Shown here: positions 6,411 through 22,599 of the stretch, piece after piece
How the letters are laid out: each line of letters starts with the position of its first letter
Position numbering within the stretch: the stretch's first letter is position 1
Origin: a virus
Length of the DNA: 64,000 nucleotides
Direction: 5' to 3' (one strand)
Virus record (IMG/VR): IMGVR_UViG_3300031715_000002
Span: 32,200 to 96,199 of that record
The notes under the pieces: generated by a model
The model's database searches: none
Told to the model about the DNA's origin: nothing
What the model saw: only the letters and a program-made list of their open reading frames with translations
Made by a program: the position numbers and the translations under genes

Positions 6411-6565
6411 TGACTTGGGACGAAGAAACCGAGAACTTTCTGCCGGCCCAATGCGATTGCGGCAACTGCGATGAGTGTTGTGAGCGCGCAGTGCGCGAGA
6501 TGAACCGCGCGGGAGAGGTCGAGGAACAACAACTGGCGGTCGAACTGCCGGAGGAACTTCAATGA
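6410..6565 (+). CDS. small acidic Cys-rich protein (51 aa)
   Basis: TGATG coupling; CDCGNCDECC motif. Confidence 0.55.
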   Translation: MTWDEETENFLPAQCDCGNCDECCERAVREMNRAGEVEEQQLAVELPEELQ

Positions 6566-6696
6566 TCCTCTGCTCTCTCGTTTGCCTCGCTATTGTGGTC
6601 TGCCCAATCGCGCTTGGCGCGGTGCTCTGGTGGGCCGCAGAACGCACGGCACTGGTGGTCGATGAATGGCTGGAGGGACGCCATGAGTTGGATTGA
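6562..6696 (+). CDS. small single-TM protein (44 aa)
   Basis: GGAGG RBS, ATGA overlap, hydrophobic N-terminus. Confidence 0.5.
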   Translation: MILCSLVCLAIVVCPIALGAVLWWAAERTALVVDEWLEGRHELD

Positions 6697-6808
6697 GATC
6701 ACCATAGCGTGGATCTTTGCAGTATGGATGCCGCTGTCGTTTGTGGCCGTGATGGTCTGGGCGGCATGGCAAGGAATCAAGTTTCTCGCGGCGCTGCTGC
6801 GAGGTTGA
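6683..6808 (+). CDS. small single-TM protein (41 aa)
   Basis: GGAGG RBS; MSWIEITIAWIFAVW... Confidence 0.5.
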   Translation: MSWIEITIAWIFAVWMPLSFVAVMVWAAWQGIKFLAALLRG

Positions 6809-6966
6809 GCCGGGATGGCTCCCGTTAGCCCTTTGGGCGAAAGGCCAGTTGCCGGACTTACAACCGGTAGCCAACCGCCATGGTGGCAGTGCGCGAAAGC
6901 TGGCGGTGACTTTTTGCGGAAGAGTTGGGTTTTCAAGACGAAAACTCACCGAAATTTATAGCGAGT

Positions 6967-6996
6967 TTGCAAAGTTTACGGCCCTTGCCCTATAAT
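6967..6996 (+). promoter_or_regulatory. sigma70-type promoter
   Basis: TTGCAA-18 nt-TATAAT. Confidence 0.75.
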
Positions 6997-7000
6997 GGGG

Positions 7001-7450
7001 TTCCCAGTCTCTCCGCGGGGATTGGAAAGGTCGTATAGAGCGATACCACGGGCGGTTGCGCTATCAGCCGCCCAGTCGCTCTCAACCCTATAGCGAGGGT
7101 TTGTGAGAACAATCAAACGAAGGCCATCCCGAAGCATTAACCCAACACACCCTCATACCGCGCTTCGCTCATTTCGAGGTGCGGCGGGTGTCTTGCGCCG
7201 CGTGTGGTGGACCTCCGGCACAAGCGTTTCTCGAAGCCAACCATCGCAACCAGTTGCTTTACTATCTAGCCCGATACCCCAGTCCCCGAGGGGGATGCGC
7301 GCGGATACCTGCGTCTGGCTGACGTAGGTTAAAACTCCGGAGACCTGCGCTTAATGGGCTTGCGCAGGCTGAACCGGTTAGATGGTTTAGCTTTAGAGTT
7401 TACCCGCATAGGGAAGGCTAAGGATTTGAAGAAAACACCTAGCCCAAGGG
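7001..7450 (+). ncRNA. candidate structured RNA (family unknown); contains a weak 74-aa ORF at 7103-7327
   Basis: Follows a near-consensus promoter; series of hairpins with G-U pairs that form on the plus strand; no convincing protein. Confidence 0.45.
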
Positions 7451-7463
7451 CGTTTTGCGTACT

Positions 7464-7735
7464 TTATTTCCCCAACCTGAACATCGCACGCATCCGCATT
7501 GCCCCTTCTGCCTCGGTAATCGGCTTCTCTGCGCATACCCCATGGCTGCAAATCAATCCACGCGGCCCTGTCCCCATCAATCGGCACACCATCGGGCGCA
7601 CTTCGTAAACGGAGCATCTGTGGTCCTTCAACAGACTGCAATCAAGCGTTCCGGACTTATGCGCCATGAACAGGCTTCGGTCGCCTTCCGGCTCATGGCC
7701 GATGAACTCAGAGATGCGCTCCCATTCAACCCGCG
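7464..7735 (-). pseudogene. C-terminal remnant of YkgJ/CxxCxxCC-family protein
   Basis: CSLLKDHRCSVYEVRPMVCRLMG...C-HG; N-terminus replaced by the ISL3 fragment. Confidence 0.65.
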
Positions 7736-8608
7736 TCTTTGCGGCGGCGAAGGATCAGGTGGCGCTCGTGCATCAACTTCCGGCGCTGCTTGACCTCCAT
7801 CGACTCCCTGAGTTCCTTGCGGACGGCATCCAGGCAGTGATTCGCTATCTTGACCACATGGAACTTGTCCACCACGACTTTGGCATTGGGCAGCACCTTC
7901 AGTGCTGCGTCCCTGTAGGGACGCCACATATCCATCGTCACGATATCTACGGCGTTCTTATTCAACCGTTCAGTCATCCACTTGATTACAGTGGGCTTAT
8001 TCCGGTCCACCAAAAGGTCGATAAGCGAATTCATCTCGACGTTCGTGAGCACACACCGGGGCTTGCGGATCAGGAACAACTCGTCAATGCCTAACCAATT
8101 CGGCGTCACCGGACGGTACTCGGCGTCGAGCTTGTCCGTGTGCTCCGTGAAGATGTTGCGGACGGTCTTCTCGTCAACACCAACGTCGGCGGCGACTTCC
8201 GTGAACGTGCGCTCCAAGGAACGCTTCTTGATGTACTCGATCAGGCGGCGAGTCATCGTGCGCTTCTCGTCCATGTCGGGGAGAACCTGCTGGAAGGTCT
8301 TTCCGCAGTCGCCGCACTTGTACCGCACCCGCATGACCTTCAGGCCCACCCGGCTTACCGTGGATGGGCGTATCTCCGAAGTGCTGTTCCTCCACGCCAT
8401 GCCGATTCAGCTTCGGCGGCGTGACTCCACAGCGAACACAACACACGGGAGCCTTGGTGTACTCTGCCGTAATCACCATGTCGTCGTCGTTGTGGTTTGT
8501 TTCCAACACGTTCCAGTCTTTCAATCCAATGATATTGGGCACTCTGTCATAATATCAAACATCGGATTACACTGTGGAGTACTCACGGTACTACTTTCGG
8601 ATTCTGCC
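7735..8608 (-). mobile_element. tnp: truncated, frameshifted ISL3-family element (5' half)
   Basis: CVRCG/CGDCGK zinc finger, HTH, GIDE, MDMWRPY, VVDKFHVV; extra base near 8351; sequence stops at RRRKD. Confidence 0.9.
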
Positions 8609-9292
8609 GTGAAGAAGACTTGCTGAGAGAGACGGCCAGCGGCAATCTCGCAGTACTTCTCTTCGATCTCGATGCCAATACCACGACGCCCAAGGTGCTT
8701 TGCTGCCACCATTGTTGTGCCGCTCCCCATGAATGGGTCCAGGACGGTTTCCCCCGGTCTGCTCCCCAACGAAACAAGCCATTTCATCCAACTGAGTGGC
8801 TTTGGGCAGTGGCTTTGGGCACGGATGCCCATTCTTCTCGCCGATGTCGGTGCTGGAGATGGCGATGGCCTTCGATCCCTTATGCAAATCGGGAGATGAA
8901 CCGTAGAACATGCAGTGGGCAAGCGACGAAAACCCCCAAGCATTCCGGCCACACGCAGCAGGAAGAAACACTCCACCAACGGCTGTGGGGCGGGGGAAGT
9001 CCCACATCATCGTGCCAGCGCAAAAAACGATGGCCCTCTCTGAGTGCTTTATCGCTGCGTCAACCACGGGCACGACCACACTCAAGAAGTTGGCATATGT
9101 GTCGTCGTATGATGCGTACTTCTGCTTGGCTAGGTATTGTGGACGCTTCTCCTTCGATGCGTCATGGTTGCCGAGATTCACGCCGTAAGGTGGGTCCGTC
9201 AATACCAGATGAACGGGTGCGAGTGCTGGTATAACGTCCCGGCTGTCGCCGTGGTAGATCGTAATTCCGTCCTGTTGGTAGTAAGGTTTCAA
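8521..9292 (-). pseudogene. DNA N4/N6 methyltransferase, frameshifted
   Basis: TDPPYG and HPCPKP in one frame, LDPFMGSGTT in another; 13-bp tandem duplication at 8796-8821. Confidence 0.9.
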
Positions 9293-9703
9293 ATGATGTC
9301 CTTGGCGGATTCCGCCGTGTTCAACCACGCTACATTCCGATTTTGCATAGACGAGTTATTGGGGAGAACAGAGTACGAAACTCCACAGTCAAATCCGAAT
9401 AGCCTTTTCAATTTGAATCAGCTTTTTCGCGGGAATCATACTCACGGTTCAGCCTTTCAATCTCAACCTCAAACGACATACCCCACAGAGCCTCGAACTT
9501 GTGCCGACCGAGGCGTTCTACTGAAAGCATCCCGGCTTGATGCCTTGCTGGCTTGCCAGAATGGGGTTCTTTGCCACTTTCCCGCCTCTGTGGGCCACGT
9601 TCGGCTCCCGGTTGAGGGATAATGGCACCCCCTCCCTTGCGCGTGGCATTGAGGCTTGTGCACTTCAGTGACTTTTTGCGGATCAGTGGCTTGCGGTGGG
9701 GAA

Positions 9704-10578
9704 TCATCTGGACGGCCAAAAACATTCGGCAATATGGAGCGAAAGAGGGAATGGGATTCTGGCGATCATGGCGCTGGCGGCCTTGCGCCGCGGTGAATTG
9801 CTCGGGAAGTGGGCAGCCACGTCGGGATCTGCTAACCATGCGCGTCCGGAGTGCCCCGGCTGCTTCACTCCGCTCACCGCCACCGCCGCGCTCTGAAACG
9901 AGCCTCCCGCCATCCCCTTCTCGTGCTGATGGAAGTTGAAGCCGTCCACCTTGACGTGCCCCTTGGCCGAAACAGACGCCATCCCGAACTCAAGCGGCCC
10001 GCTGCGCACGATGCGACCGCCCACGTCTTCCACATCGCCCCAGAGGTAGTACGAGCCGTAGTGCGCCTTCGCCCGGCCTACCCACGGCTGCGCGCCCTTA
10101 ACGTTCTCGACCACCATGGGGATATAGCGTGGCGCGAATTCGCATCCGTCAAGTTTCGTGGCAGGGTGATAAATTCCGCAGCGTGCGCAACCATACGCCT
10201 CCGTGGCCGCTTCGCTGGCCTCTCGCTGGATGCGGAAGCAGGCGTCGAACAGAGCATTAAGGCTCTCTAGGCGGTCGCCGAACGGAGAATCCCGCTCCCA
10301 CCTCTGCCACCGAACCTCCGCTTGGCCAGATTCCACGGCATGGCCATGTAGGAGTACCGCTGGCACGGAGGCGAAGCGACAATGCAGGCGGCATCGCGAA
10401 ACTGGCTACCATGGATCGTGCGAACATCCTGAAGCACCAACTCCGCGCCTTCAGGCACAGGCCCATGGTGCGGGCAGTGCTCAATATCAAACCCGATTGC
10501 TCTACCGCCAAGCGAGAGCCAGCCCGCGCTCCATCCGAAGCTGCCTGCAAACAGTTCGATCATTAGAGGCGGGTTCAC
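9704..10578 (-). pseudogene. DNA C5-cytosine methyltransferase, frameshifted
   Basis: ELFAGSFG and ASPPCQ in one frame, VVENVKGA and ARIPFPLS in the next; one base missing near 10320. Confidence 0.85.
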
Positions 10579-10606
10579 GCAAAGAGTTCCTGGTTCTTGC
10601 TCTTGC

Positions 10607-11167
10607 TCATCGTGAAGCCCTCCGTCTTGATTCAGAAATGCTGGCAGGGTCACCGAAACGCAGGCGCGGTGGTGGCGTGGCCATTACTGGCTCCGCTGGA
10701 ATAGCGAGCGGTTCGCATTTCTCGCCGACCATCACAGCATCGCAGAAGGCCGCAATGCGCTCTTTGCTTGCGTGCTGGCCGTCCCAGTCTCCACCGTACC
10801 TTGGACCTTCGCCACGATCCGGTGAATGGAAACTACACTGCCCGAATCCCGGCAAGTCCACATAGAGCACTTGGGATGCTCGCTCACCAAACACCACGGC
10901 TGGATCTTCTTTCCAACCCCAAACAAACCCGAGCGATTCGCCGTGTATGCTCAGCAAGCGGCACAGTTCTCCGAGGGACCATTGCTTTACGTCGTAGGCC
11001 GCGCGCCGCCATTTGCCACGGCGGTAATCCTTAGCCCGGCTGCTACGCTTCTGGCAACGGAACAAGGCCACGGCGATTTCGCCGAGTGTCCCGCGTGAAG
11101 CCAACTCAGCATAGTACGCTTTGGTGACTTGCCCGTCGTTCTGCGAGAAAACCTGTGCCGCTGTCAT
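10607..11167 (-). CDS. conserved hypothetical phage protein
   Basis: 186-aa ORF, ATGA-coupled; LYVDLPGFGQCSFH motif. Confidence 0.7.
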   Translation of the reverse strand: MTAAQVFSQNDGQVTKAYYAELASRGTLGEIAVALFRCQKRSSRAKDYRRGKWRRAAYDVKQWSLGELCRLLSIHGESLGFVWGWKEDPAVVFGERASQVLYVDLPGFGQCSFHSPDRGEGPRYGGDWDGQHASKERIAAFCDAVMVGEKCEPLAIPAEPVMATPPPRLRFGDPASISESRRRASR

Positions 11168-11730
11168 GATGGCCGCTCCACTTCAAGTACGTGTGTCAGA
11201 TGCCATCCGCCATTGGCCTTTGGCTCGCATTGCTTAAGGAGCCACGGCACAACACTATCGTGCCATTCGGACAACGGAACCCATCCACCAACGCTCATGC
11301 AATTCACATCGAAGATATTCGGCTCTTCACTTTGAATTGAGGAGTCAGCAACTATCCAGTGAGTGTGCCGATAGCGGACCAGAATCGGAACCCCCGGAGC
11401 CGTCCATGGGCCTTCCCATTGCACGCGCACCAATCCGAAGCGTGGCCAAGGGTGCAGGCCATCGTTGAACCAAGCCGTACCGCCTATCGCCTTACGTGGA
11501 CTCCAATTGAGTCCAAGACGGTTCAGGCACTCAAACATCAATGTTGGGTTGGTATACCCCTTACTCTCGAAATCGCCCATGTGGGGTCGCAGTGCGTCTG
11601 GGGTTAGCCCGGAAACAACAGCCAACGCCGCCGGGCCACAATTGAAACCCCACTCGTCGCCGGCGCGCTCTGCATCGGACAGCGTGAATCGTGGCGCTAC
11701 TAATCGAGAAACAATGCGTGCCGCTGCCAT
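11164..11730 (-). CDS. putative papain-like/C39-like fold protein
   Basis: NCGPAALA ... HTHWI ... IFDVN suggests a Cys-His-Asp triad. Confidence 0.5.
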   Translation of the reverse strand: MAAARIVSRLVAPRFTLSDAERAGDEWGFNCGPAALAVVSGLTPDALRPHMGDFESKGYTNPTLMFECLNRLGLNWSPRKAIGGTAWFNDGLHPWPRFGLVRVQWEGPWTAPGVPILVRYRHTHWIVADSSIQSEEPNIFDVNCMSVGGWVPLSEWHDSVVPWLLKQCEPKANGGWHLTHVLEVERPS

Positions 11731-11747
11731 ATGGACTTCAGCCTTTG

Positions 11748-12032
11748 TTATTTCGAGAACTGTTTGATTAAGCCCGCCATGTGGGCATCTATCTCAGTGA
11801 CTTCATGCACGTCGAAATTGACGTGAGCCTTTGCCGGATATGCCGCCATGAGAGCATCCAACGCCTGCTTATCTGGCACGGAAACCACAGCGTACTCGCC
11901 TGAGCCGTCCTTAAATCCGCCGATGCTCTGGAAGAATCTCTGGTTGGCCGAAAGCCACTCCGCAGCCTGATGAAAGGTTTCCGCAGTCGGGTTCGTACCC
12001 GGCTTTGGTGAAACGGTGATATGGAACGTCAT
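11748..12032 (-). CDS. hypothetical protein
   Basis: AGGAGG RBS; 94 aa. Confidence 0.65.
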   Translation of the reverse strand: MTFHITVSPKPGTNPTAETFHQAAEWLSANQRFFQSIGGFKDGSGEYAVVSVPDKQALDALMAAYPAKAHVNFDVHEVTEIDAHMAGLIKQFSK

Positions 12033-12057
12033 TGTTGCCTCCTCCTCTGAAAGTTAT

Positions 12058-12975
12058 TTATGCGGTGGCTCCGTAGTTTGGTACGCCTGGGAGTTGCGGC
12101 CCGTAAGGCAGCACCGGAACATCGTCCCAAGTACGAGCATCAAGCGTTCGCCCGGCTTTCTTTTTGTCTGCAAATCGCACCATCGGAGCGGCGATGTGAT
12201 AAGCAGCACCAGATATTGGAGCAAACTGTCCCCACTGCTTCCAAAGAAACGGCAGTGGCCACGGTCGTCCCATATCAGCGCGATTGCGGCAATCATCGCG
12301 AAGTTTTCTCGCCCAGTCCACTTGGCAGGGGCGCGCGCGAGGACCAGATTCGCCACCACCGATCACCCAATCGAAGTAAGGTAGCCATGAGTTGTAGTTT
12401 ATGACATGCGTATCCCGATAGGGCTGTGGTGTCCAATCCAACTCGCTTAGGAGCGGCTCGCACGATGCAAATATCAGTGATCCAGGGAAGACGCGCTGGA
12501 ATTGGATGATGTGTGGCATGCGCTCATCAAGTCGCCTTTGGTTCTCCAGCGTCACACCGAACATAGCATTACGCGGCCAATCTTTGTCCCAATAGGCAGG
12601 AAACATCCGTACCGCGTTCTCTGGGCGCTTCGTCAAAAATAGCCAAAGCAGATTCGGTGTGCTCACGGCAATATCGAACACGCGACGGCGTAGCGGCTCA
12701 AGTTCCTCGCGGTCCTCAAGCACGTCGCACATAGATCCACAGAACACGCGGTGCATAACGCCAAGTCTCTCAGCCGCCTTGTTCCATTTGAACGGCTGCT
12801 GCCAGTGATTCTCCCCGAAGAAACGGCGGTCTACATCTTGCCCCCAGACTTTCAGGCCAACCCGCTTTGAAAATGATTCGGCGTAGCAATTCTGGCATCC
12901 CTCGCTCACTTTGGTACATCCCCAGATCATGTTAAAAGTGTGCTCCGTCCATTCGATCTTTGAATTTTCGGCCAT
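12058..12975 (-). CDS. DUF5131 / phage Gp37-Gp68 family (radical-SAM-like)
   Basis: SKIEWT, GCTKVSEGCQNCYAE, LTKRPEN, SCEPLL, WVIGGGESG, KQWG. Confidence 0.92.
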   Translation of the reverse strand: MAENSKIEWTEHTFNMIWGCTKVSEGCQNCYAESFSKRVGLKVWGQDVDRRFFGENHWQQPFKWNKAAERLGVMHRVFCGSMCDVLEDREELEPLRRRVFDIAVSTPNLLWLFLTKRPENAVRMFPAYWDKDWPRNAMFGVTLENQRRLDERMPHIIQFQRVFPGSLIFASCEPLLSELDWTPQPYRDTHVINYNSWLPYFDWVIGGGESGPRARPCQVDWARKLRDDCRNRADMGRPWPLPFLWKQWGQFAPISGAAYHIAAPMVRFADKKKAGRTLDARTWDDVPVLPYGPQLPGVPNYGATA

Positions 12976-13487
12976 TACGCCCCCTTCGTTTCCGCACTCG
13001 GCACGCACACCACCAGATCGGCATCTGCCTTGCGCGCCAGACTGCCTCTGATTTCCTCCACCGGCTTCGCTTCAATGCGCTCGATTTCGCGTAGCGCCAC
13101 TTCCCGGAAGGTGGTTTCATACGCCGCGCACCAGCCCAACAGGGTGACTGCCACGCCGCCGGCCTCTTGCTGCGGTTGCCCCGCTGGGCGTCCGTAGACA
13201 TGGAAAATTTGCCGCATCACTGGGTCGAACGGGATGCCTTCTGCTTGCGCCAACTCGACTGCCTCTTCGAGCAAGCGGATGGCGCGCTCCTGCGGGGCAA
13301 TATGGTCCGCTCCGATGCGCGTGCGAATCCATTCGGCTACGCGGCGCTCAAGAAACCCAGAGGGCATCTCGCCTTCGATGATAATCGGCGCAGGCGACTT
13401 CAGGGATTCTATCTTTGTTGGCTCAAAACCGGCCATGCTGCCATCTTGCGCCTTGCTATCAAGGTATCGTTCGTATTCAGCGATCAT
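12975..13487 (-). CDS. MazG-like all-alpha NTP pyrophosphohydrolase-fold protein
   Basis: ERAIRLLEEAVELAQA ... QEAGGVAVTL. Confidence 0.55.
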   Translation of the reverse strand: MIAEYERYLDSKAQDGSMAGFEPTKIESLKSPAPIIIEGEMPSGFLERRVAEWIRTRIGADHIAPQERAIRLLEEAVELAQAEGIPFDPVMRQIFHVYGRPAGQPQQEAGGVAVTLLGWCAAYETTFREVALREIERIEAKPVEEIRGSLARKADADLVVCVPSAETKGA

Positions 13488-13711
13488 GCAAACAGCCCCA
13501 CCTTCTCGCCTTGCGCCGGCCGCACATCCCACCCGGCATGGTGATCCAATCCAGGCACAATCTCATATCCACGGACGCGCAGCCAGCCTTCCAACTCTTC
13601 GGTAGGCCGGTGCTGGCCAACCCACAGGTTCATGAACCAATCCGAAAGGCGGATGGCACGCTGCTTGCGGTTTACGAGGGCGAGTACGGATTCGGAGAGG
13701 ATGAGGTTCAT
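13484..13711 (-). CDS. hypothetical protein
   Basis: ATGA-coupled to neighbours. Confidence 0.55.
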   Translation of the reverse strand: MNLILSESVLALVNRKQRAIRLSDWFMNLWVGQHRPTEELEGWLRVRGYEIVPGLDHHAGWDVRPAQGEKVGLFA

Positions 13712-14259
13712 AAAACGCTCCGACTGCCAACTGCGGGGCAACTCACCGAATGCGGGACGATGCCCTGCTTGGCCAACTCGCGCGACGCGACCAACCTAGG
13801 CCCAGGTTCCTCTTGCCACTGCACCCGATTAGTTGCCACCAATGCCTTAGCAATTTCATCTACGCGGGCATTGAAGGCACGGCCCTCAGCCAGAATCTCT
13901 TTCCATGGCTTGCCGCACATGCAACAATCAGGCGCGAGCGAGATTGGCTGCGGAGGGCCGTATTTTTTCCGCCATTCCTTCTCTCGATCAATACGGACTT
14001 CTTCTTGTGCGGTAGTATTCGCATTCACCTGACGGATGATTTCTACGATGGTGGCGGGCGCAGGACACTCCTCACATTGATCAACCGCCATATCGACTAC
14101 CTGCCGTACAGCCGAGTCAGACTTGCATCCGCCCAGGAGCACGCGTTTGAATTCGGCGGCTCGCGCCTTCGCCTGCTCTGGAGAACTCTTGGCACCTGGC
14201 GCGAAAGGGATTTGCATCAACCTGGCAATTTGTTTGTTAATTCCGGCGTCATCAATCAT
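13708..14259 (-). CDS. replication accessory protein (helicase loader/inhibitor-like)
   Basis: Directly downstream of the initiator; CPAPATI motif. Confidence 0.45.
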   Translation of the reverse strand: MIDDAGINKQIARLMQIPFAPGAKSSPEQAKARAAEFKRVLLGGCKSDSAVRQVVDMAVDQCEECPAPATIVEIIRQVNANTTAQEEVRIDREKEWRKKYGPPQPISLAPDCCMCGKPWKEILAEGRAFNARVDEIAKALVATNRVQWQEEPGPRLVASRELAKQGIVPHSVSCPAVGSRSVL

Positions 14260-14260
14260 G

Positions 14261-15070
14261 CTATGCCTCTTCGATAATTTCGCTCATGGTTTTAGCGCGC
14301 GCTGGCCAACGCGAGGTCCACCCATCCTCCGCACATTGAGCCAACCAGCCCATTTTCCCGTTGGTACTGCCGGGGTTCATGATTGCCCCACGCGCCACGT
14401 CCGCAGACTTGCAATAGCTTTCCAGGCAAGCGAAAATGGCACCCTCGTTATCGGTGGAAACATACATCATCCACTCGCGCTCTACGCCAGCCCGGCCATA
14501 CTTCCTGGGGTAGAGTTCCCAGAATTCCTCAAAACGGCTGGATGCTGCGGTAGAGGGAATTTTACGCGCGGTTCCATTTGTATGTACTGTTGTGTTTTGT
14601 ACTGTTGTTCCTTGTACTGTTATGTCTTGTCCTGTAACGCCACTTTTTGCCAACGTGGTGGGATTTTCCGCCACTTCATCGGCAGATTCCGCCACTTCAT
14701 CGGCAGAATTTCCCAAAGCCTCTGTTTGCAGGGCTTCTAGCCATCCTATTTCGACCAATCGGGGGATTACCTCTTGGAATACTTGGGCTGGCAATCGGGA
14801 GATTCTCCCAAGGGAGCGGCAGATTCCGCCAATGCCTTGGGGGATTCCGCTAGGAAGAGTACCGCGATTTTCGCGCGGGGTTTGCTTTGCGGCGATCTCA
14901 ATTATAGCCACCCAAGCTCCGAAATGGGCCGCTCCGTTTGGATGGTCCACGAGGGCCGTATATCCTTCCCCGTCCATCTTTGTTGGAACTGCCACCCAAT
15001 CGAGGCGCTTTAGTTTTCGGCTGGCAGCGTTCTCAAAATCTCTATCCCAATTAGTTATGCGGTAGATCAC
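14261..15070 (-). CDS. phage replication initiator protein
   Basis: YRITNWDRDFEN...WVAVP N-terminus, low-complexity linker, FEEFWELYPRK C-terminal motif. Confidence 0.8.
   Translation of the reverse strand: MIYRITNWDRDFENAASRKLKRLDWVAVPTKMDGEGYTALVDHPNGAAHFGAWVAIIEIAAKQTPRENRGTLPSGIPQGIGGICRSLGRISRLPAQVFQEVIPRLVEIGWLEALQTEALGNSADEVAESADEVAENPTTLAKSGVTGQDITVQGTTVQNTTVHTNGTARKIPSTAASSRFEEFWELYPRKYGRAGVEREWMMYVSTDNEGAIFACLESYCKSADVARGAIMNPGSTNGKMGWLAQCAEDGWTSRWPARAKTMSEIIEEA
14583..14707. repeat. iteron-like repeats (candidate origin) inside the initiator gene
   Basis: TGTACTGTT at 15-bp period (x3-4) and an exact 21-bp tandem repeat TTCCGCCACTTCATCGGCAGA (14666-14707). Confidence 0.6.
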
Positions 15071-15191
15071 TTATCGGCCATCCCTCAATGGCTGTCAGCG
15101 GGAGCGGTATGAGGGTACCGCCCCGCTGCTGACATTTCCGTGGGCTTTCGCCCAACAGAACGCATTGTACCGCAACTCACGGTAGATTCAA
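15071..15191 (-). promoter_or_regulatory. promoter plus structured leader of the initiator gene
   Basis: TTGAAT-16-TACAAT; hairpin loop CCCTCA complementary to TGAGGG in the RBS hairpin loop. Confidence 0.65.
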
Positions 15192-15218
15192 AGCCAAAAA
15201 ATGGTGCTCCTGTGGCCC

Positions 15219-15410
15219 TCACGGCGCCACCTCCAGGAAATCCGCATGGAACTCCTCTGAGCGCTCCCTGCCATCAATCCGCACCGTTACCAACTCATTC
15301 CGCTGGCCAACCACGATAGCTCGCGTGAAGCGCTGGTCTACGAGCTTCTCTCTGGCCTCGTGGCTGAGCACGACGTGCTGGCGTGGACGGAAGCGCTTGG
15401 GAGGAGTCAT
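15219..15410 (-). CDS. small SH3/KOW-like hypothetical protein
   Basis: MTPPKRFRPRQHVV...FHADFLEVAP. Confidence 0.5.
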   Translation of the reverse strand: MTPPKRFRPRQHVVLSHEAREKLVDQRFTRAIVVGQRNELVTVRIDGRERSEEFHADFLEVAP

Positions 15411-15415
15411 GGAGT

Positions 15416-16255
15416 TTACGCAGGCGTGCCGTTCAGGATTGTGGTTTCGGTTGCTGCGGCAATCTGATTCACGATGGCCCTGAAGGCATCCCGTTCGATG
15501 TTGGCCGCGCGCCAGAGGTCGTACCACATGGCCAGTTTACCGGCCGCCAAGCGCCACCGGAGCCGCGCTACCACCTTGACCGGATCGCCGCCCTGGTAGA
15601 TCGGTATCTGGATGGTGAACGTCTCCGGCACGGCAAACTCACCCGCCGCGCCGCAGACGCCCTTGACCATCTCGTTGTAGCGGAACTTGATGCCCGCGTT
15701 GGTGCGGACGGCCGACTCGCAGTTGATTTCACCCGAGGCCACGATGGTCCGGGCGATCTCCAACATGGTGGCGGGCGCCGGGTCCACGATGTCTGGCGAG
15801 TTGTCTTCGATGAACTGAGCGAAGACATCCTGGGCCACCTGCTTGCCGTCCTGGCTAGTCCTCCACAGAATCCACTCATCCGATTTGCGGAGCGCGATTT
15901 CTATGGTGTGCTGGCACCAGCGCGGGACGGCCACACCGTATTCGTCTCCCAGGCCCTCATGGTAATCCAGCACCGCCTTGATCTGGCCGCTCTTTTCGTC
16001 CGCGAAGATACGGGAATCTCCATCGCTGAAATCGCCGAAGTACTTCACGAACGACAGCGCGTCGTGAAACTTCACATTGGCTTTGATGCGCGGGGGCCGC
16101 TCGCGCAGTTGCTCGTTGACGGGCAATTGGACCACAGAGTAGCCTAGCGGCGCGAGAACACTCGGAACACCCCCATCGAGCGATGAGGTAAACGTTTCCC
16201 CGGCGCGCGCCAGCGCCGCAATCTCTTGAATCGCTTCTTTGGTGATGTCAGCCAC
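15416..16255 (-). CDS. YfdQ / DUF2303 family protein
   Basis: SFVKY, AVLDYH, W-QH, FAQFIEDN, IPIYQGG, ARLRWRL. Confidence 0.9.
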   Translation of the reverse strand: MADITKEAIQEIAALARAGETFTSSLDGGVPSVLAPLGYSVVQLPVNEQLRERPPRIKANVKFHDALSFVKYFGDFSDGDSRIFADEKSGQIKAVLDYHEGLGDEYGVAVPRWCQHTIEIALRKSDEWILWRTSQDGKQVAQDVFAQFIEDNSPDIVDPAPATMLEIARTIVASGEINCESAVRTNAGIKFRYNEMVKGVCGAAGEFAVPETFTIQIPIYQGGDPVKVVARLRWRLAAGKLAMWYDLWRAANIERDAFRAIVNQIAAATETTILNGTPA

Positions 16256-16583
16256 GTGGTTCTCCTACGGAAGCACTCTTGCGGTCTGGCTCGAAGAGTT
16301 TCTGCTGGCGCGGGTCCTCGCGCGTCAGTGTGCCATCCTGAGCCAAGAAAAAGATGGAAGACCCGATGGAGAATTCTGGTTTCTTGACCTTGGAATCATA
16401 ATCGATCTTCATCTCAATCTGGCCGTCCTTCTGCTTTGATGGGCTAAGGGAAAACTTGATCGACATCTCCCCTTTCATATTGGTTTCCGCCACGGCCTCT
16501 ACCAACTCGGTGAATTTCCGGCTGATATCGATGGCCACATTACCGTCTCGCATCTCGGCTAAAACAGACAGAATGTCTGTCAT
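16248..16583 (-). CDS. YfdP-like protein
   Basis: Usual partner upstream of DUF2303; FFLAQDGTLTREDPRQ. Confidence 0.75.
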   Translation of the reverse strand: MTDILSVLAEMRDGNVAIDISRKFTELVEAVAETNMKGEMSIKFSLSPSKQKDGQIEMKIDYDSKVKKPEFSIGSSIFFLAQDGTLTREDPRQQKLFEPDRKSASVGEPRG

Positions 16584-16597
16584 TGTTTCCTCCTAAC

Positions 16598-17134
16598 CTA
16601 CTCCTGCTCCTTCAGCCACAACTCGAAGGCCTCTTCCAGCACCTGCTCCTGAGTGATCTTGCGGTAATCAAGGACCGCCTGAATCCGCGCTACGAAGGCC
16701 AGAGGGACCACGGCCAAACTCATATCTATGGTCGCCAAGCGTAGGGATGCTGGCCGCCCCGTGCGCCTGGGCTTCGGCGGATTAGCGCGGAAAGCCTCAA
16801 CCTCTACACGCTGGAAGATGTACTCTTGTCCACGAGCGTGCTTACGCCACGATGGCGTGAGTTTGCCAATGCGCACCATGCGACGAATCGTTCCATCGGA
16901 TATATCGAGGTACTCCGCCGCCTCACGCACCGTCATCACCGGGCTTGGGCTCGGCTCCTGATGGCTCATAGCCTCGAATCCTACGCCCCATTCCGGTGCA
17001 TCGGTCGGCAAACTCTCCATGGCCTTAGCGATTTCCTCGCGGGTTAGCCCGTTCATCCGGACGGCGAACTCTTGCTGCGTCATCCCTAAATCTCCATTCC
17101 GTGCCATCGGTGCCTTAGCCGTAGCAGTCATCAT
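16598..17134 (-). CDS. HTH_17 DNA-binding protein
   Basis: MTVREAAEYLDISDGTIRRMVRIGKL. Confidence 0.8.
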   Translation of the reverse strand: MMTATAKAPMARNGDLGMTQQEFAVRMNGLTREEIAKAMESLPTDAPEWGVGFEAMSHQEPSPSPVMTVREAAEYLDISDGTIRRMVRIGKLTPSWRKHARGQEYIFQRVEVEAFRANPPKPRRTGRPASLRLATIDMSLAVVPLAFVARIQAVLDYRKITQEQVLEEAFELWLKEQE

Positions 17135-17137
17135 GGG

Positions 17138-17617
17138 TTACCATTCCTCGAATCTCAAATCAGGGTACTTCGCCATGAACCACTTTGCCTTGATCCTGTA
17201 AGCATCTGGGCGAAATCCCTTGGCGTCCACGACCACCGTTTCACCGGTGGCTATTTCCTTGTACCGGAAGTCTGCAATATAGTACACCGGGCGCACGTGC
17301 TTTCCCCACTTCGTATCGAAGGAATCTTGAAGTGCAAAACGCGGCTGCACCTGGAGAGCGACAATGTGGCCGCACCGTTCCATGGCCAGCAGTTTTTGAT
17401 ACGCTTCCGCTTCTCGGATGCTCTGGAATACCGCACCGCCACTCATCCTGTAGGCCAGCACTTCTTTCCGGTTCTCAAATACCTGTCCCTCGGCAGAGAC
17501 GAACTTGTTGCCGTATTTCTCACGCTTCGGCAGAGCGGTGGCCGTGGTCTTTATGACATCAGGTTGCTTGAGCCTATCGAAGTGGGCCAGCACGTCTGAT
17601 TCTGTCCAGCCACTCAT
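17138..17617 (-). CDS. DUF1064 family PD-(D/E)xK nuclease
   Basis: KYGNK, FQSIREA, QPRFAL, YIADFRY, VVDAKG. Confidence 0.9.
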   Translation of the reverse strand: MSGWTESDVLAHFDRLKQPDVIKTTATALPKREKYGNKFVSAEGQVFENRKEVLAYRMSGGAVFQSIREAEAYQKLLAMERCGHIVALQVQPRFALQDSFDTKWGKHVRPVYYIADFRYKEIATGETVVVDAKGFRPDAYRIKAKWFMAKYPDLRFEEW

Positions 17618-17681
17618 TTCCGTCTCTTCCCCGCAGCAATTAGAGCGCCCTTTTTAACTGCTTCGAGTGCTTGTCCAAAGT

Positions 17682-18125
17682 TCATATTTTTACCCCCATC
17701 AACGCCAACTCCACCAGTGGCTCCCGGTGGTCACACTGCCCCACAGCCCGGCACACGGCACATGGCCGCTTGTAGGCAATCGCCAGCAGAGTCTTAACCC
17801 GGTTGGCCTGTAAAACGGCAGGAAGCGGGCTTTCCGTTCTCTCTGTGGGCATTGGGCGCGGCTTAGGCTCCTCCAATACCACCGGAGGGCCTACCGCGGC
17901 CTGGTGACAGTGGTAATGTACTACCGAGTGATCTATCCGCAGCGCTTCACTGGTGTCCCGCTGAGACAACCCCATGCTGCGTAACTGCTGGCACGCATCG
18001 CGGCGGGCGCGGGTGACTCTGCGCGAGCGTGCCCCTTGCAATATCGCGGATGGCAGCACGTTGTTGCGCCTGGCAACTGCGGCGATGATGCGCTCAACGC
18101 GGGACCGGGAAAGGCGGGTGGTCAT
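17682..18125 (-). CDS. DnaA-C-terminal-like HTH protein
   Basis: RSRRVTRARR...GLSQRDTSEALRIDHSVVHY. Confidence 0.7.
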   Translation of the reverse strand: MTTRLSRSRVERIIAAVARRNNVLPSAILQGARSRRVTRARRDACQQLRSMGLSQRDTSEALRIDHSVVHYHCHQAAVGPPVVLEEPKPRPMPTERTESPLPAVLQANRVKTLLAIAYKRPCAVCRAVGQCDHREPLVELALMGVKI

Positions 18126-18736
18126 TGTGCCGCTACCTCCGCTGTAGGTGCTTTGCGGGTGGCGGCATCGTATTGCTGAATACCCCAGACGATTGCATAG
18201 AGGCACCACAATAAGTGATAGGCGTACTCTTTTCCGTCTGGCAACTCGCAAGTGTCAAACTGAAACCCATCGTGCTTGAAGTCCCGAGCCGCTATCAGCA
18301 GATCTAGCTTACAGTCTTGGCAAAGCACCTCATCCCGTAGCGCTTCCATGACAGATTGCAACCGATCTCCTTCAAGGTCATAGTATTCAGTTAACTGGGC
18401 AACGAGGCGCTGCTTAAATAATTCCTCGGAGAATACCTTAGCCCCGTCCCTGCCGCCGTGCGTTCCATGCTGAAGTTTTTCAGCCCAATAGCTCGCATTG
18501 ATGCGCAGTTTGGAATCGCGGAAGAATGAGAACATGTCTGGCAATCGCGCGAATGTCCAGCACCCCATGTCGGCTGCGATTGTGAGAAACCCAGGCCACG
18601 TCACAAGATCGAACCACATATTCCAGTGATTGTCTGGACGCTTAAACTTGATGTGCCGATAAATCCCGCTATCGAGCAAAATGTTGATCTTGTGATCCCG
18701 AACATCGCGCAGGAAATCTTCAGGGGTTATGCTCAT
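18122..18736 (-). CDS. conserved hypothetical phage protein
   Basis: FDLVTWPGFL...DMFSFFR...INASYWAEKL. Confidence 0.75.
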   Translation of the reverse strand: MSITPEDFLRDVRDHKINILLDSGIYRHIKFKRPDNHWNMWFDLVTWPGFLTIAADMGCWTFARLPDMFSFFRDSKLRINASYWAEKLQHGTHGGRDGAKVFSEELFKQRLVAQLTEYYDLEGDRLQSVMEALRDEVLCQDCKLDLLIAARDFKHDGFQFDTCELPDGKEYAYHLLWCLYAIVWGIQQYDAATRKAPTAEVAAQ

Positions 18737-19302
18737 CGCGCAACCTCTTTCTCAGGCGACAATGCCGGATTAGAACAAATCAATCTGATGTGATGCCAGT
18801 ATTCCGCTGTAAGCCAATGGAAGCGCTGCGCGCTGTACCGACGAATGTCCAGCATTCCCAAATGGCCGTCCGAGGCAAAACCCTCAACCGCTCCAACCAC
18901 TTCGGCCCCCGGTAGCATTTGTGCTGTGGGATCATGAATCAGGTGCATCCATGCTATTCCAGAGACCAGAATCAATTTGGAGCACTCCAGGCAGGATGGA
19001 GCCATACTCGCGCAAGGCTTGTTGTCCCTCATCTTCACGTGCAACATCCATGATCCTGCTAGGCGTTCGAGAGCGGCGATTATTGCCGCCTGTTCAGCAT
19101 GAATCGCCGTTTTTCCACAGTTCCGTTTACATCGGTCGCTGCCATCACACTCAAACGGCCCTGGCTGATGATTGTACCCATGGGAGATGAACCGATTATC
19201 AGCGGAGGCAATGACCACTCCACGCTTGCTTTGACATGGCGAGTACGCCGCCGTTGAGAGAGCATACGGGACCCAAGAAGCAATTTGGGATTCGGTACTC
19301 AT
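18733..19302 (-). CDS. dCMP/cytidine deaminase-like protein
   Basis: SPCQSKRG, GYN, HAEQAAI, PSCLECSK zinc motifs. Confidence 0.85.
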   Translation of the reverse strand: MSTESQIASWVPYALSTAAYSPCQSKRGVVIASADNRFISHGYNHQPGPFECDGSDRCKRNCGKTAIHAEQAAIIAALERLAGSWMLHVKMRDNKPCASMAPSCLECSKLILVSGIAWMHLIHDPTAQMLPGAEVVGAVEGFASDGHLGMLDIRRYSAQRFHWLTAEYWHHIRLICSNPALSPEKEVAR

Positions 19303-19676
19303 TTCGCCGCCTCTTTCTCCGGCGACCACAGCGCCTCTTGCGGCTCATCGCCATTGCAGGCGCGACCGTCGCTCAATCTCTCTCCCCAGATCCAACGATT
19401 AACGTACCAGACAAATGCTATCGCCGCATCGCCAGCGTGGCCGGTGGCTTCATCAATTGCGGCTTCCAACCCGTTGCGCGGCGGCACATGGCCAGTCTCT
19501 TTGCTGAACTGCGCAACAATATCAGCATCCTGCGCGGCGAAGTTCAGGCAACCGTACCACGCGGGCAACACGATCTCACTAGTTGGCATCAGCGCGTGAA
19601 TGCGCTCTTGCACAGAGGCAACGGATTGCTTCGTGATGCGCCTTGGCGCACCAATGGCTTTTGACTTTTCCTTCAC
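19299..19676 (-). CDS. hypothetical protein
   Basis: GTG start behind a structured leader; 4-nt overlap with the deaminase gene. Confidence 0.65.
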   Translation of the reverse strand: MKEKSKAIGAPRRITKQSVASVQERIHALMPTSEIVLPAWYGCLNFAAQDADIVAQFSKETGHVPPRNGLEAAIDEATGHAGDAAIAFVWYVNRWIWGERLSDGRACNGDEPQEALWSPEKEAAK

Positions 19677-19833
19677 TGGCTTCCCTCGGCCTCTCGATAA
19701 ACCGCGAGAGGGGCGGGTCGGAGGCCGAGGAAGGCGTTAAGCGATCCCTACCCCTCGTCCCGCAGTTTCACAACACCCAACGTGGCCTACGCTGGATATC
19801 GTGAATAGTATTACGAATCCATTGTTAAGTCAA
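19677..19833 (-). promoter_or_regulatory. promoter plus structured leader
   Basis: TTGACT-17-TACTAT (19833-19805); hairpin loop CCTCGGCCTC complementary to GAGGCCGAGG over the RBS. Confidence 0.7.
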
Positions 19834-20019
19834 TAACAAATTTCACAGTGTTGGCTAAGCCCCTGTACCCTTTGGCCAGCGGCGTTGCGGTTCCAACTCC
19901 ACGGCCTTTGTCGTCTGCCGTTTCACTGGCTGTGGCGGGTTGTCCAGCAGGGACAAGAGGGCCTTCATCTTTGCGCGCATCCGTGGGTAGTGGGCTACTT
20001 TCGATTCCCGGCAGCTTGA

Positions 20020-21026
20020 GCGGCTCGCCGTCTCCGTGAGTACGTCCAGCGCCGATCTCTGGAGCGGACCTTTACGGAAGTTGGCGTCGATATTGGCGTG
20101 GACGAGAAGACCATCCGTAACATCTTCAACGAATACGTTGCGGATCTCGATGCAAAGTATTGGCCGCTCACGCCGAACTGGATTGGCATTGACGAACTGT
20201 TTCTCGTCCGCAAGCCCCGCTGCATCTTCACGAACGTCCAGCAACGCACCATCATGGACCTGTTGCCCAATCGAGATCAGGCCAGCGTTTTGAAGTGGCT
20301 CATGCGGCGACAACTGCGAGAACTGGTGGAAGTTGTCACGATGGATATGTGGCGACCCTACCGGAACGCTGCGCTCGAAGCGATGCCGAACGCCGTGGTG
20401 GTCGTTGACAAATTCCACGTTGTCAAAATGGCGAACCATGCTCTCGATTCCATCCGCAAAGGTCTTCGAGACGGCATGGACCTGAAGGAACGCCGGAAGC
20501 TCCTGAGAAGCCGCCACTTGATCCTTCGCCGCCGCAAGGATCTCAGCGACAAAGACTACGCAGCGATGGAAGAGTGGACGAACGCCATTCCCGCACTGTT
20601 CGCCGCCTACCAAGCCAAAGAGGACTTCTTCGACATCTATGAGTGCAAATCGAAGGTCGAAGCGATGGAACTCTACGACACCTGGAAGGCTTGCCTGGAC
20701 AAGCGAACCGCCGCTGCCTTCTTCGAGTTGATCCGAGCCGTGGATAATTGGCGTCCCGAAATCTTCAACTACTTCGATTTTCCAGGGGCCACCAATGCGT
20801 ACACGGAGGCCGCTAACGGCATGGCGAAGGTCGCCAATAGATTGGGCCGGGGATACTCGTTTGAGGCCATCAGAGCCAAGGTATTGTTCGGACAGGCCAA
20901 GCATATCAAGCGCCCCAAATTCGGAGAAACAGCGCTGGAAAGCGCTGACACCTACGGTGTGTCCCTGCCAAGTTTGATCGAGATGTTGGACGCAAATCAT
21001 TCAGACACACTCAATTCCGAATAGCC
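20020..21026 (+). mobile_element. tnp: 5'-truncated ISL3-family element (HTH + DDE domain, right end)
   Basis: GIDE, MDMWRPY, DKFHVV, TNAYTEAANG, GRGYSFE; ends ...CCGAATAGCC; lacks the zinc-finger N-terminus. Confidence 0.92.
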
Positions 21027-21419
21027 GATCTGCGGATTCTTCGGAATCGACACCTCCCCGATCCACTCGAAGCCGCCCGCCTCGAACAGATCCACCACCG
21101 CCCCCCGGAAGTCCCGCCGCCCCATGTACCCGTGCTGATTCTTGTACCGAAGGAGCTGCTGGATGTGAATGCACACGTTCCGCCCCGGCTTCATCACCCG
21201 CAGCAGTTGGTGGATGAAGAACCGCATATGCAGCCCGAACTGCGACCCCCGCATATCCACCCCGTCCGGGTTGTTCCCGATATCCTCCGGCTTCCCCGAG
21301 TACATAAAGAGCGCCCCGAACGGGATCGAACTCACCGTCAGGTCGATACTCTCCGGCTCCAGGTGCCCGAACATCGCCGGAATATTGTCCTCGTTCCAGA
21401 TCTGAGCGTTAATCCCCAC
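20997..21419 (-). pseudogene. DNA N4/N6 methyltransferase truncated by ISL3
   Basis: SIDLTVSSIPF, LLRVMKPGRNVCIH, RDFRG, IPKNPQ then IS end; SAM-binding half is missing. Confidence 0.85.
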
Positions 21420-22599
21420 AGACATCCTCCAGGAATGGCTGTACCACGCCATCCGCAAACATCGGCTCCAACACTGCATCCCCCGCCGGTTCGGTACCAT
21501 CCCACCCGCGCGGCCACGTATTCGCCTCAGTCAACTCACGAATCCGGGCTTCCTCCTCAGGGTTAATGAGGTCGATCTTCGGCTGCCCGACTTGCTCTGC
21601 TGCGTCGTTAATCTCCCCCTGCACACCCAGCACAGTAGACAACCCGAACTCGCGTGCCTCCATCGTCAACGGCCCGACCCTCTGCTGGTTTTGCGACAGC
21701 GTGCCATCCTTCCGCCGCTCGCCGCCCGCCTTACGGATGCGATGGGCGTGGTTGAAAGTCAGCTCCTCGTAGAGCGGCTTAAGCCGAAGAAGCGGGGCTA
21801 GGTAAGACCATTCCGGCCGCTCTACTACGCCGCGCAATGCCTTGTCTTGACTCGCCAGCGGACAACCGATACATCCGGTCCGTGCGTTGATCTCCACGGC
21901 CTCATCGCCGCCGTAGACGTTCGCCACCATCCGCGTCGGGTATTCGTGCTCCCCGAACATTAGCCAATCCCACACGTGGCATACGCGCCAGTGAAGCAAC
22001 GGAGCCAAGGTATCCGCCACCGCCTCCGGAGTCGCCTCCTGGAACCATCCCTGCCCGCACTCCGCCCCATCCCGCGAGCAACTCATGATAATCCTGCTGT
22101 CGCGCGCCGCAGATTCCCCTAGCCGGACCCCCGTGAGCATCAGGAGCTTCTCGCCGGCGGTTTCCCGGAGTTCCTTGAGCGCGTTCAACATCGGCTCGAT
22201 CTTGATCTGGCTGGTACACCAGCGAAATCGGTTCTTCGGCGGGGGAACCCCGCGGCCGAACATGTACACGAAGTAACGGTCGTCCATCGCCGGTAGAACC
22301 ACCCGCGCGCTAAAGCCCTTGCTCCGCAACTTCTCCATCATCCGCATCGCGGATACCTGGAGCGGTGGTATCTCCATCCGGGTGTCCGCATAAAGGATCG
22401 TCAGCGACTCCGGCCGTGGAATCACGCCACTCTCGATCAGGTGCGCGACAATCGTCACCGTCGCACTGGAGTCTTTCCCTCCGCTGTAAGCGATGGCCCA
22501 ATGCTTGAACCGCGGAGCGTACGCCCTCAGCGACTCCACCGTTAACTCGATGGATTTCGGTAGTGTCAGTCGCTCCGACTCGAAGAGATTTGCGTTCAT
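21409..22599 (-). CDS. PAPS-reductase family protein (DndC-like)
   Basis: AYSGGKDS, ADTRME, RWCT-QIKIEP, GVRLGESAARD, RTGCIGCP. Confidence 0.9.
   Translation of the reverse strand: MNANLFESERLTLPKSIELTVESLRAYAPRFKHWAIAYSGGKDSSATVTIVAHLIESGVIPRPESLTILYADTRMEIPPLQVSAMRMMEKLRSKGFSARVVLPAMDDRYFVYMFGRGVPPPKNRFRWCTSQIKIEPMLNALKELRETAGEKLLMLTGVRLGESAARDSRIIMSCSRDGAECGQGWFQEATPEAVADTLAPLLHWRVCHVWDWLMFGEHEYPTRMVANVYGGDEAVEINARTGCIGCPLASQDKALRGVVERPEWSYLAPLLRLKPLYEELTFNHAHRIRKAGGERRKDGTLSQNQQRVGPLTMEAREFGLSTVLGVQGEINDAAEQVGQPKIDLINPEEEARIRELTEANTWPRGWDGTEPAGDAVLEPMFADGVVQPFLEDVCGD

Follow-up and report, generated by a model that had tools for sequence, protein, structure and literature searches.

A conserved leader with complementary hairpin loops at the ribosome-binding site ahead of a putative replication gene in soil and peat phages

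The locus and its leader

The window analyzed here is a stretch of 64,000 nucleotides (positions 32,200 to 96,199 of IMG/VR record IMGVR_UViG_3300031715_000002) and forms part of a 96-kb phage contig. Its minus strand carries, at 14261-15070, an open reading frame (ORF) for a 269-aa putative replication-initiator or replisome-organiser-like protein, in which residues 1-112 make up a conserved N-terminal domain, joined through a disordered linker to a C-terminal domain that is helical. Over residues 124-227 the protein gives weak matches to PHROG 9474 and PHROG 9327 (E 7e-5 and 1e-4, respectively), while searches of Pfam, NCBIfam, and PDB sequences returned no match. Foldseek searches with an AF2 model (pLDDT 74.8) returned only weak, MarR/ArsR-like matches, the best at an E-value of 3 to winged-helix regulators, and the identity of this protein as a "replication initiator" is weakly supported. 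The 157 homologs found begin with M/V/L-x-L/Y-R-I-x-x-W at the equivalent residue, and the GTG start at 15070 is therefore sound. Neighboring genes are of early or replication type (DUF2303, an HTH protein, a DUF1064/resolvase-like protein, dCMP deaminase, and DUF5131), and the metagenome-assembled genome (MAG) matches carrying homologs of the 269-aa gene include Terriglobia, Bryobacterales, and Solibacteraceae.

Immediately upstream of this gene, at 15071-15191 on the minus strand, lies the leader that is the subject of this analysis (copy 2 below). A reading made from the sequence alone had described here a promoter, a GNRA hairpin, a long hairpin, a short hairpin, and a GTG, and all of these minus-strand elements were found where that reading had placed them. 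The promoter is of the sigma-70 type (15164-15191), with TTGAAT at 15191-15186 and TACAAT at 15169-15164 separated by a 16-nt spacer, and agrees with the consensus at 9 of 12 positions. It is followed by the 5'-terminal hairpin P1 (15136-15160), which has a GNRA tetraloop in a GGGC-GAAA-GCCC core (15153-15142) that can be extended to 15160-15136, and then by GGAAA. The long hairpin P2 (15093-15134; 17 bp in all) is made up of a 7-bp lower stem, P2a (15134-15128 with 15099-15093), an internal loop with AGC on the 5' side and C on the 3' side (3/1 nt), and a 9-bp upper stem, P2b (15124-15116 with 15109-15101), which is capped by the apical loop L2 (CCCUCA, 15110-15115). Directly adjoining P2, with no linker, is the short hairpin P3 (15077-15092), in which a 5-bp stem (GCCAU/AUGGC) closes the loop L3 (UGAGGG, 15087-15082) that holds the GAGG Shine-Dalgarno core. 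The two 6-nt loops are exact complements, making L2 a candidate anti-RBS (ribosome-binding site) sequence. The spacer CGAUAA and the GTG start codon (15070-15068), at which homologs start in the equivalent place, complete the arrangement (15068-15076). The GAGG core lies 11-12 nt upstream of GTG 15070, which is long for a Shine-Dalgarno spacing.

The 116-nt leader stretch has a predicted folding energy of -54 kcal/mol, compared with -34.8±3.6 for 200 shuffles (z -5.27), and no shuffle folded as well. With Rfam 15, no match reached the gathering score anywhere in the window, and none appeared at E up to 5 in 6500-16000 for families that include C4 antisense RNA, mini-ykkC, preQ1-II, and SAM-II. 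The element is probably a promoter-proximal 5' untranslated leader (~87 nt) of the replication-module operon, a description that shares its likelihood with the overall explanation given below. Because the reverse complement folds equally well (of 24 cases, 11 favored the sense strand, p 0.59; G-U counts were also compared), thermodynamics does not tell the strand, or RNA from single-stranded DNA. It is solely the position between promoter and start codon, together with the involvement of the Shine-Dalgarno sequence, that suggests action as sense mRNA.

Just upstream of the leader promoter, a hairpin at 15196-15232 (minus strand) followed by CACCAUUUUUU ends a 63-aa ORF (15219-15410). Despite its terminator-like look, the hairpin was rejected as a terminator because the fold of 15186-15245 is no more stable than that of shuffles (z 0.01). 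GUGAGG, a 5-nt complement of L2, is present in the hairpin's loop. An RNase P or tRNA-like substrate, suggested by the GCCA after P2, was also dropped because GCCA is not conserved across members of the leader family.

Related elements within the window

A second arrangement of the same order (promoter, P1, long hairpin, short hairpin, GTG 7103) is found on the plus strand at 6967-7105 (copy 1). Its promoter, TTGCAA-18-TATAAT, spans 6967-6996, and within 7038-7105 the P2 hairpin (7038-7081) presents the loop CGCUAU (7059-7064) and the P3 hairpin (7084-7101) the complementary loop AUAGCG just before the GTG. The sequence-only reading had held that the two copies share their geometry; the architecture is indeed alike, but the fit of copy 1 to the family covariance model described below (R2) is weak (16.7 bits, E ~0.12), even though it is the second-best match to that model in the window. 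Since copy 1 carries the ACCAC internal loop and the single-A bulge of the family, it is probably a genuine member that has diverged in sequence. The ORF that follows (74 aa) is of doubtful coding value and looks non-coding, and the 246-nt stretch after it folds no better than shuffles (z -0.84). Adjoining the copy 1 transcript, at 7726-8400 on the minus strand, is a 224-aa ORF with an ISL3 transposase HTH and a partial DDE domain, which is probably a truncated insertion sequence.

A third element (copy 3; 19677-19833, minus strand) has a 12-nt anti-Shine-Dalgarno sequence, UUCCUCGGCCUC, facing GAGGCCGAGGGAA before GTG 19676. Its minimum-energy fold is a plain Shine-Dalgarno-sequestering hairpin (z -1.55), R2 gave no match to it, and it is probably a different, simpler device. 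The 13-nt word ACCCTCATACCGC, which in copy 2 comprises L2 and the 3' arm of P2b (15104-15116, minus strand), recurs identically at 7149-7161 on the plus strand, in the transcript downstream of copy 1 and in a region predicted to be unpaired; the coincidence is of little weight because ~60 such 13-mer repeats are expected by chance per 64 kb.

A similar caution applies to the loops. A loose scan of the window for a hairpin with a 6-nt complement before an ORF returned dozens of chance matches, ~1.4% of 26-nt windows in this genome hold the complement, and copies 1 and 2 alone stood out, by stem length and adjacency. Because a hairpin with a 6-nt complement is this common by chance, the single-genome observation is weak when taken alone, and the significance of the predicted loop pairing comes from the comparative data.

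Loop complementarity in homologous loci

We collected 119 loci encoding homologs of the 269-aa protein, and the upstream regions of 84 non-redundant loci were used to search for an apical loop, on a hairpin of at least 7 bp, with an exact complement of at least 6 nt within the 26 nt before the start codon. Such a loop was found in 20 of the 84 regions. When the RBS windows were exchanged among loci, 2.1±1.4 loci matched (maximum 8 in 1000 trials), and the per-locus chance of a loop complement is ~1.5%. The search upstream of homologous initiators, which had been proposed as a check on the initial observation, thus gave a clear excess of complementary loops. Altogether, 29 elements (window copies 1 and 2 included) have a P2 loop with a 6-8-nt exact complement to the ribosome-site region, as CCCUCA and UGAGGG are in copy 2. 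The complementarity is kept throughout and is under selection, recurring across ~27 different loop sequences (e.g., CUCCCA/UGGGAG, CCCUUAA/UUAAGGG, CCCGAAU/AUUCGGG, CCACGAA/UUCGUGG, CUAGCC/GGCUAG, CUCCAUA/UAUGGAG, and CCUUUCA/UGAAAGG). The earlier description of the second loop as the RBS itself also stands across the family in slightly broader form, with the partner of L2 being, or abutting, the ribosome-binding site.

No more than roughly a quarter to a third of the homologous loci have the leader. Its carriers are soil and peat phage contigs in which the promoter, P1, P2, and P3 follow one another in the same order. Of the 16 relatives scored, 14 have a promoter matching 8-10 of 12 positions at a distance of 27-53 nt before P2, as does the window. 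Related leaders have a P1 hairpin followed by GGAAA or GGAU, and the P2 internal loop is conserved in sequence on its 5' side (ACCAC, ACCCC, or ACCGC), which could be a hinge or a protein site. In one clade (L016, L019, L020, and L098), the P1 hairpin (CCGG...CCGG), which lies ~90 to 60 nt before the start codon, has an invariant 11-nt loop, AAAUAAGCUCC; in members outside this clade, the bases right after the -10 box are GUCCUUGAG. Such conservation in the P1 loop may reflect an additional contact or a site for a protein.

The members fall into two groups. In group A, which includes the window, the partner of L2 is in the loop of the 4-6-bp hairpin P3, the gap between P2 and P3 is 0-3 nt, and the 3' arm of P3 often continues the Shine-Dalgarno sequence. 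The nine members of group B are without P3, and there the partner of L2 is the unstructured Shine-Dalgarno sequence itself, 20-25 nt after P2 (e.g., GUAGGAG, UCAGAGG, and GGAUGAG). The mean energy of the L2:L3 duplex (-8.3 kcal/mol) is of the same order as that of the 16S tail on the Shine-Dalgarno region (-9.5), as befits a competitor rather than an irreversible clamp. Pairing in either group would cover or lock the ribosome site.

The initial reading had likened the differing loops of copies 1 and 2 to compensatory change within one genome. The compensation lies instead between orthologous leaders of different phages. Among four close relatives whose coding sequences are 79-90% identical, there are 0-1 differences over the 16 positions of the P2b stems and none in the P3 stems; the loops show 1-4 differences, every one of them exactly compensated. 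Loops that evolve faster than stems would be in line with a trans-acting address, although the pattern, seen in one clade of four sequences, is no more than suggestive.

In three loci (L038, L024, and L061), a small ORF or an HNH gene lies between the leader and the initiator homolog, which assigns the leader to whichever cistron comes first in the operon rather than to the initiator as such. The proposed control of a replication initiator is accordingly narrowed on both counts: the leader is tied to the first cistron, and the initiator identity is weak (PHROG E 7e-5, with a weak winged-helix-like fold). The intervening gene in L024 (2041-2505) encodes an HNH-endonuclease-like protein of 154 aa, a selfish nuclease gene that seems to have been inserted directly behind the leader and to be using it now. 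One 116-kb metagenome contig has the initiator locus twice, 58 kb apart (L019 and L060), and a 58-kb viral contig carries the same locus once; the duplication most likely arose when a 58-kb phage was assembled as a head-to-tail concatemer.

Covariation of the helices and of the loop pair

The MAFFT alignments of the leaders (A2-A4) were rejected as structural alignments. Since they were out of structural register, one of them served only as the seed of a first covariance model (R1), and the best 12 matches to R1 were realigned with that model (alignment A6) and used to rebuild it as R2. Two-sided changes occur at 20 of the 21 stem pairs in A6 (P2b 9/9, P2a 6/7, P3 5/5), counts that are inflated towards the structure because the model fitted the alignment to the stems. 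A6 has a covariation score of 0.552; shuffles score 0.197±0.03, and slid partners 0.08-0.17. The loop-loop helix is untouched by this inflation, as the covariance models had no loop-loop term; on A6, 81% of the L2:L3 cells are paired and all six pairs have changed on both sides.

Copy 2 matches R2 at 63.2 bits (E 1e-11), and seventeen elements in other loci match at E 0.011 or better. Six of the members recovered (L038, L024, L061, L048, L010, and L014) are from outside the set on which R2 was built. All six have a 7-8-nt L2:L3 complement, and because they were not used to build the model they provide independent confirmation. At the level of sequence comparison, the data establish the helices, the covarying complementarity of loop and RBS, the promoter, and the start codon, and the leader is a conserved, uncatalogued family of predicted structured RNAs of soil and peat phages and prophages.

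Proposed mechanism and alternatives

The explanation considered best, which we regard as somewhat better than an even bet, is that pairing of L2 with L3 would mask the RBS and limit translation of the first cistron of the replication module. The leader would fold into P1, P2 with its asymmetric internal loop, and P3, whose loop and 3' arm would present the Shine-Dalgarno sequence. L2 would pair with the P3 loop in a Watson-Crick helix of 6-8 bp or, in the sister group without P3, with the unstructured Shine-Dalgarno sequence. The L2:L3 helix and the 16S rRNA tail would compete for the ribosome-binding site, so that translation initiation of the first cistron, here the putative replication initiator, would be held down. 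We infer that the leader acts as sense-strand RNA and by repression rather than activation, and the manner of pairing is proposed on the same conditional footing.

The sequence-only reading had the two loops kissing within one molecule with all stems intact. This looks strained with P2 and P3 only 0-3 nt apart, as far as ideal helices can indicate. By arithmetic on ideal A-form helices, P2b, the kiss, and P3 would stack coaxially into a rod of ~20 bp and ~55 Å; in the window its ends are connected through nothing more than P2a (7 bp) and a single bulged base, and in the L016 clade through 1-3 nt with no P2a. Because the gap between P2 and P3 is 0-3 nt, a kiss within one fully folded molecule is unlikely; an intramolecular kiss needs P2a and/or P3 to open, yet covariation supports both helices. 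Two ways of pairing can be envisaged, with a slight lean towards the first. Pairing could take place between molecules, free of this geometric difficulty, if the L3 of one molecule were bound by the L2 of a second leader or of a stable fragment comprising P1 and P2, in which case repression would grow with leader and genome dosage. Alternatively, the leader could be an intramolecular switch in which pairing occurs only once P2a and/or P3 open.

A purely intramolecular kiss formed in every molecule, with P2a, P2b, and P3 intact and serving as a constitutive anti-RBS clamp, would explain the same complementarity and covariation data. Both partners always share one transcript, and in group B, where the Shine-Dalgarno partner is 20-25 nt after P2, an ordinary H-type pseudoknot in cis is possible. 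Against the clamp are the 0-3-nt linker of group A and the L016 clade, which is without any lower stem: a 6-7-bp kiss and the stems come to ~20 bp and 55 Å, the connection spans ~20-30 Å unless P2a or P3 melts, and these two helices, one of which would have to melt, are both covariation-supported. The intramolecular kiss of the guanidine-II riboswitch, moreover, needs a linker of 7-40 nt (PMC7544219), and a constitutive clamp is considered unlikely. An activating pseudoknot, in which L2:L3 pairing opens or presents the ribosome site and promotes initiator translation as in the IncI-alpha/IncB rep mRNAs, is drawn from a context that is alike in kind, namely an initiator gene and an upstream long-hairpin loop pairing at the rep ribosome site. 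Many of the leaders, however, have the Shine-Dalgarno core itself covered (GUAGGAG, UCAGAGG, UGAGGG), an arrangement expected to prevent 16S pairing. A conserved leader peptide is lacking, and a consensus scan of the opposite strand found no promoter-like site in 9000-22000; activation by this route is improbable.

Two further readings take the leader away from translational control. The RNase III processing signals of phage T7 are irregular hairpins with an internal loop, and P2 resembles them, so the leader could by analogy be an element of RNA processing or stability, with P2 as an RNase III-type site or 5' stabiliser and the loop-loop helix building or positioning the cleavage substrate. 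That P2b, the kiss, and P3 amount to about two helical turns, and that the 5' side of the internal loop is conserved (ACCAC, ACCCC, ACCGC), would suit such a substrate; the processing reading, which does not explain the constant location of the partner at the ribosome-binding site just ahead of the start codon, is highly improbable. Phage origins are often at or in the initiator gene, and the location of the leader beside a putative initiator gene, like the equal folding of both strands, would also fit an element acting as DNA, with inverted repeats serving as operator half-sites, a single-stranded origin, or a primosome-assembly hairpin. Three helices that covary while their sequence is free are a signature of base-pairing and not of protein-DNA recognition, however, and neither the fixed position between promoter and start codon, nor the Shine-Dalgarno sequence as one partner, nor the movement of the leader with the first cistron where another gene precedes the initiator is what a DNA element would lead one to expect, which makes this reading barely credible.

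Within the preferred reading of RBS masking, a more specific proposal, possible though rather doubtful, is that the leader is a self-addressed dose sensor. The L2 of a leader, or of a P1-P2 fragment that accumulates, would kiss the L3 of another molecule, translation of the replication genes would fall as the concentration of genomes or leaders rises, the loop pair would insulate co-resident relatives from one another, and an orthogonal pair would operate at the copy 1 promoter. If so, the leader would be the sense-strand equivalent of plasmid antisense copy-number control, and the loops would act as addresses as they do in incompatibility or heteroimmunity.

Comparison with known systems

On likeness of arrangement, the nearest published analogue is the rep-leader pseudoknot of the IncI-alpha (ColIb-P9) and IncB (pMU720) plasmids. 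In the IncI1 and IncB/O plasmids, RepZ translation cannot do without the pseudoknot, which is prevented by an antisense RNA (PMC8053102). As here, it belongs to the leader of an initiator gene in which the loop of an upstream long hairpin pairs at the rep RBS, the RBS is within a downstream hairpin, and pairing decides initiator translation (PMC8053102). Pairing of an upstream-hairpin loop at the ribosome site of the first gene is seen in the phage leader as a 6-8-nt complement in 29 elements. The plasmid pseudoknot activates translation, requires that a leader peptide be translated, and has a counter-transcribed antisense RNA working against it, whereas in the phage leader the Shine-Dalgarno sequence itself is covered and there is no conserved leader peptide. 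A consensus scan for an antisense promoter found no promoter-like plus-strand site in 9000-22000, the sole candidate in the window for a coupled leader peptide is a 4-codon AUG...UGA that overlaps the GTG without usable Shine-Dalgarno spacing and is absent from relatives, and Rfam scans detected no sequence or model similarity to the IncI-alpha/IncB leader.

Phages offer a second comparison in the c4 RNA of P1/P7 and the CI RNA of P4, which are structured RNAs located upstream on the transcript of their own target (the icd/ant mRNA for c4). Loops of the c4 type complement downstream sites that include the RBS, and matched changes of loop and target between phages lead to heteroimmunity. Processing releases c4 as a free RNA of 77 nt, which forms two loop-target pairs and has an antirepressor under its control. 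As with c4, the loop of the phage leader has its complement in an RBS farther down the same transcript, and the two sites covary between relatives. It differs from c4 in having one loop pair, a target that is a hairpin loop 0-3 nt away, and replication genes under its presumed control. The Rfam C4 family gave no match even at E up to 5.

The mini-ykkC RNA, or guanidine-II riboswitch, likewise has two tandem hairpins before the start codon, with a loop-loop kiss that controls access to the Shine-Dalgarno sequence (PMC5558903, PMC7544219). Its invariant ACGR tetraloops bind the ligand, its linker is 7-40 nt long (PMC7544219), and it is an ON switch, in contrast to the 6-8-nt hypervariable Watson-Crick loops (~27 sequences) and the 0-3-nt linker (group A) of the phage leader, in which no conserved ligand pocket is visible. 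Two complementary loops on one RNA that pair between molecules, head-to-tail, are found in phi29 prohead RNA and the bicoid 3' UTR (PMC7357161). The phi29 RNA is one of the packaging motor's components, with a 4-bp interaction and no link to an RBS, and for the phage leader pairing between molecules is a proposal.

Implications

The 29 elements define a new, well-supported family of predicted structured RNAs with three covarying helices and a covarying loop-loop helix, located where the replication genes would be controlled in phages whose hosts are little-studied soil bacteria. To our knowledge, masking of an RBS by a loop-loop helix from the same leader is not a catalogued class of mechanism. 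With ~27 orthogonal loop pairs on a constant scaffold, the family provides material for testing how the specificity of kissing loops evolves, and the natural loop pairs may be of use in programmable translational control. If the pairing is intermolecular, the leader would add a new mechanism by which a virus senses how many copies of itself are present.
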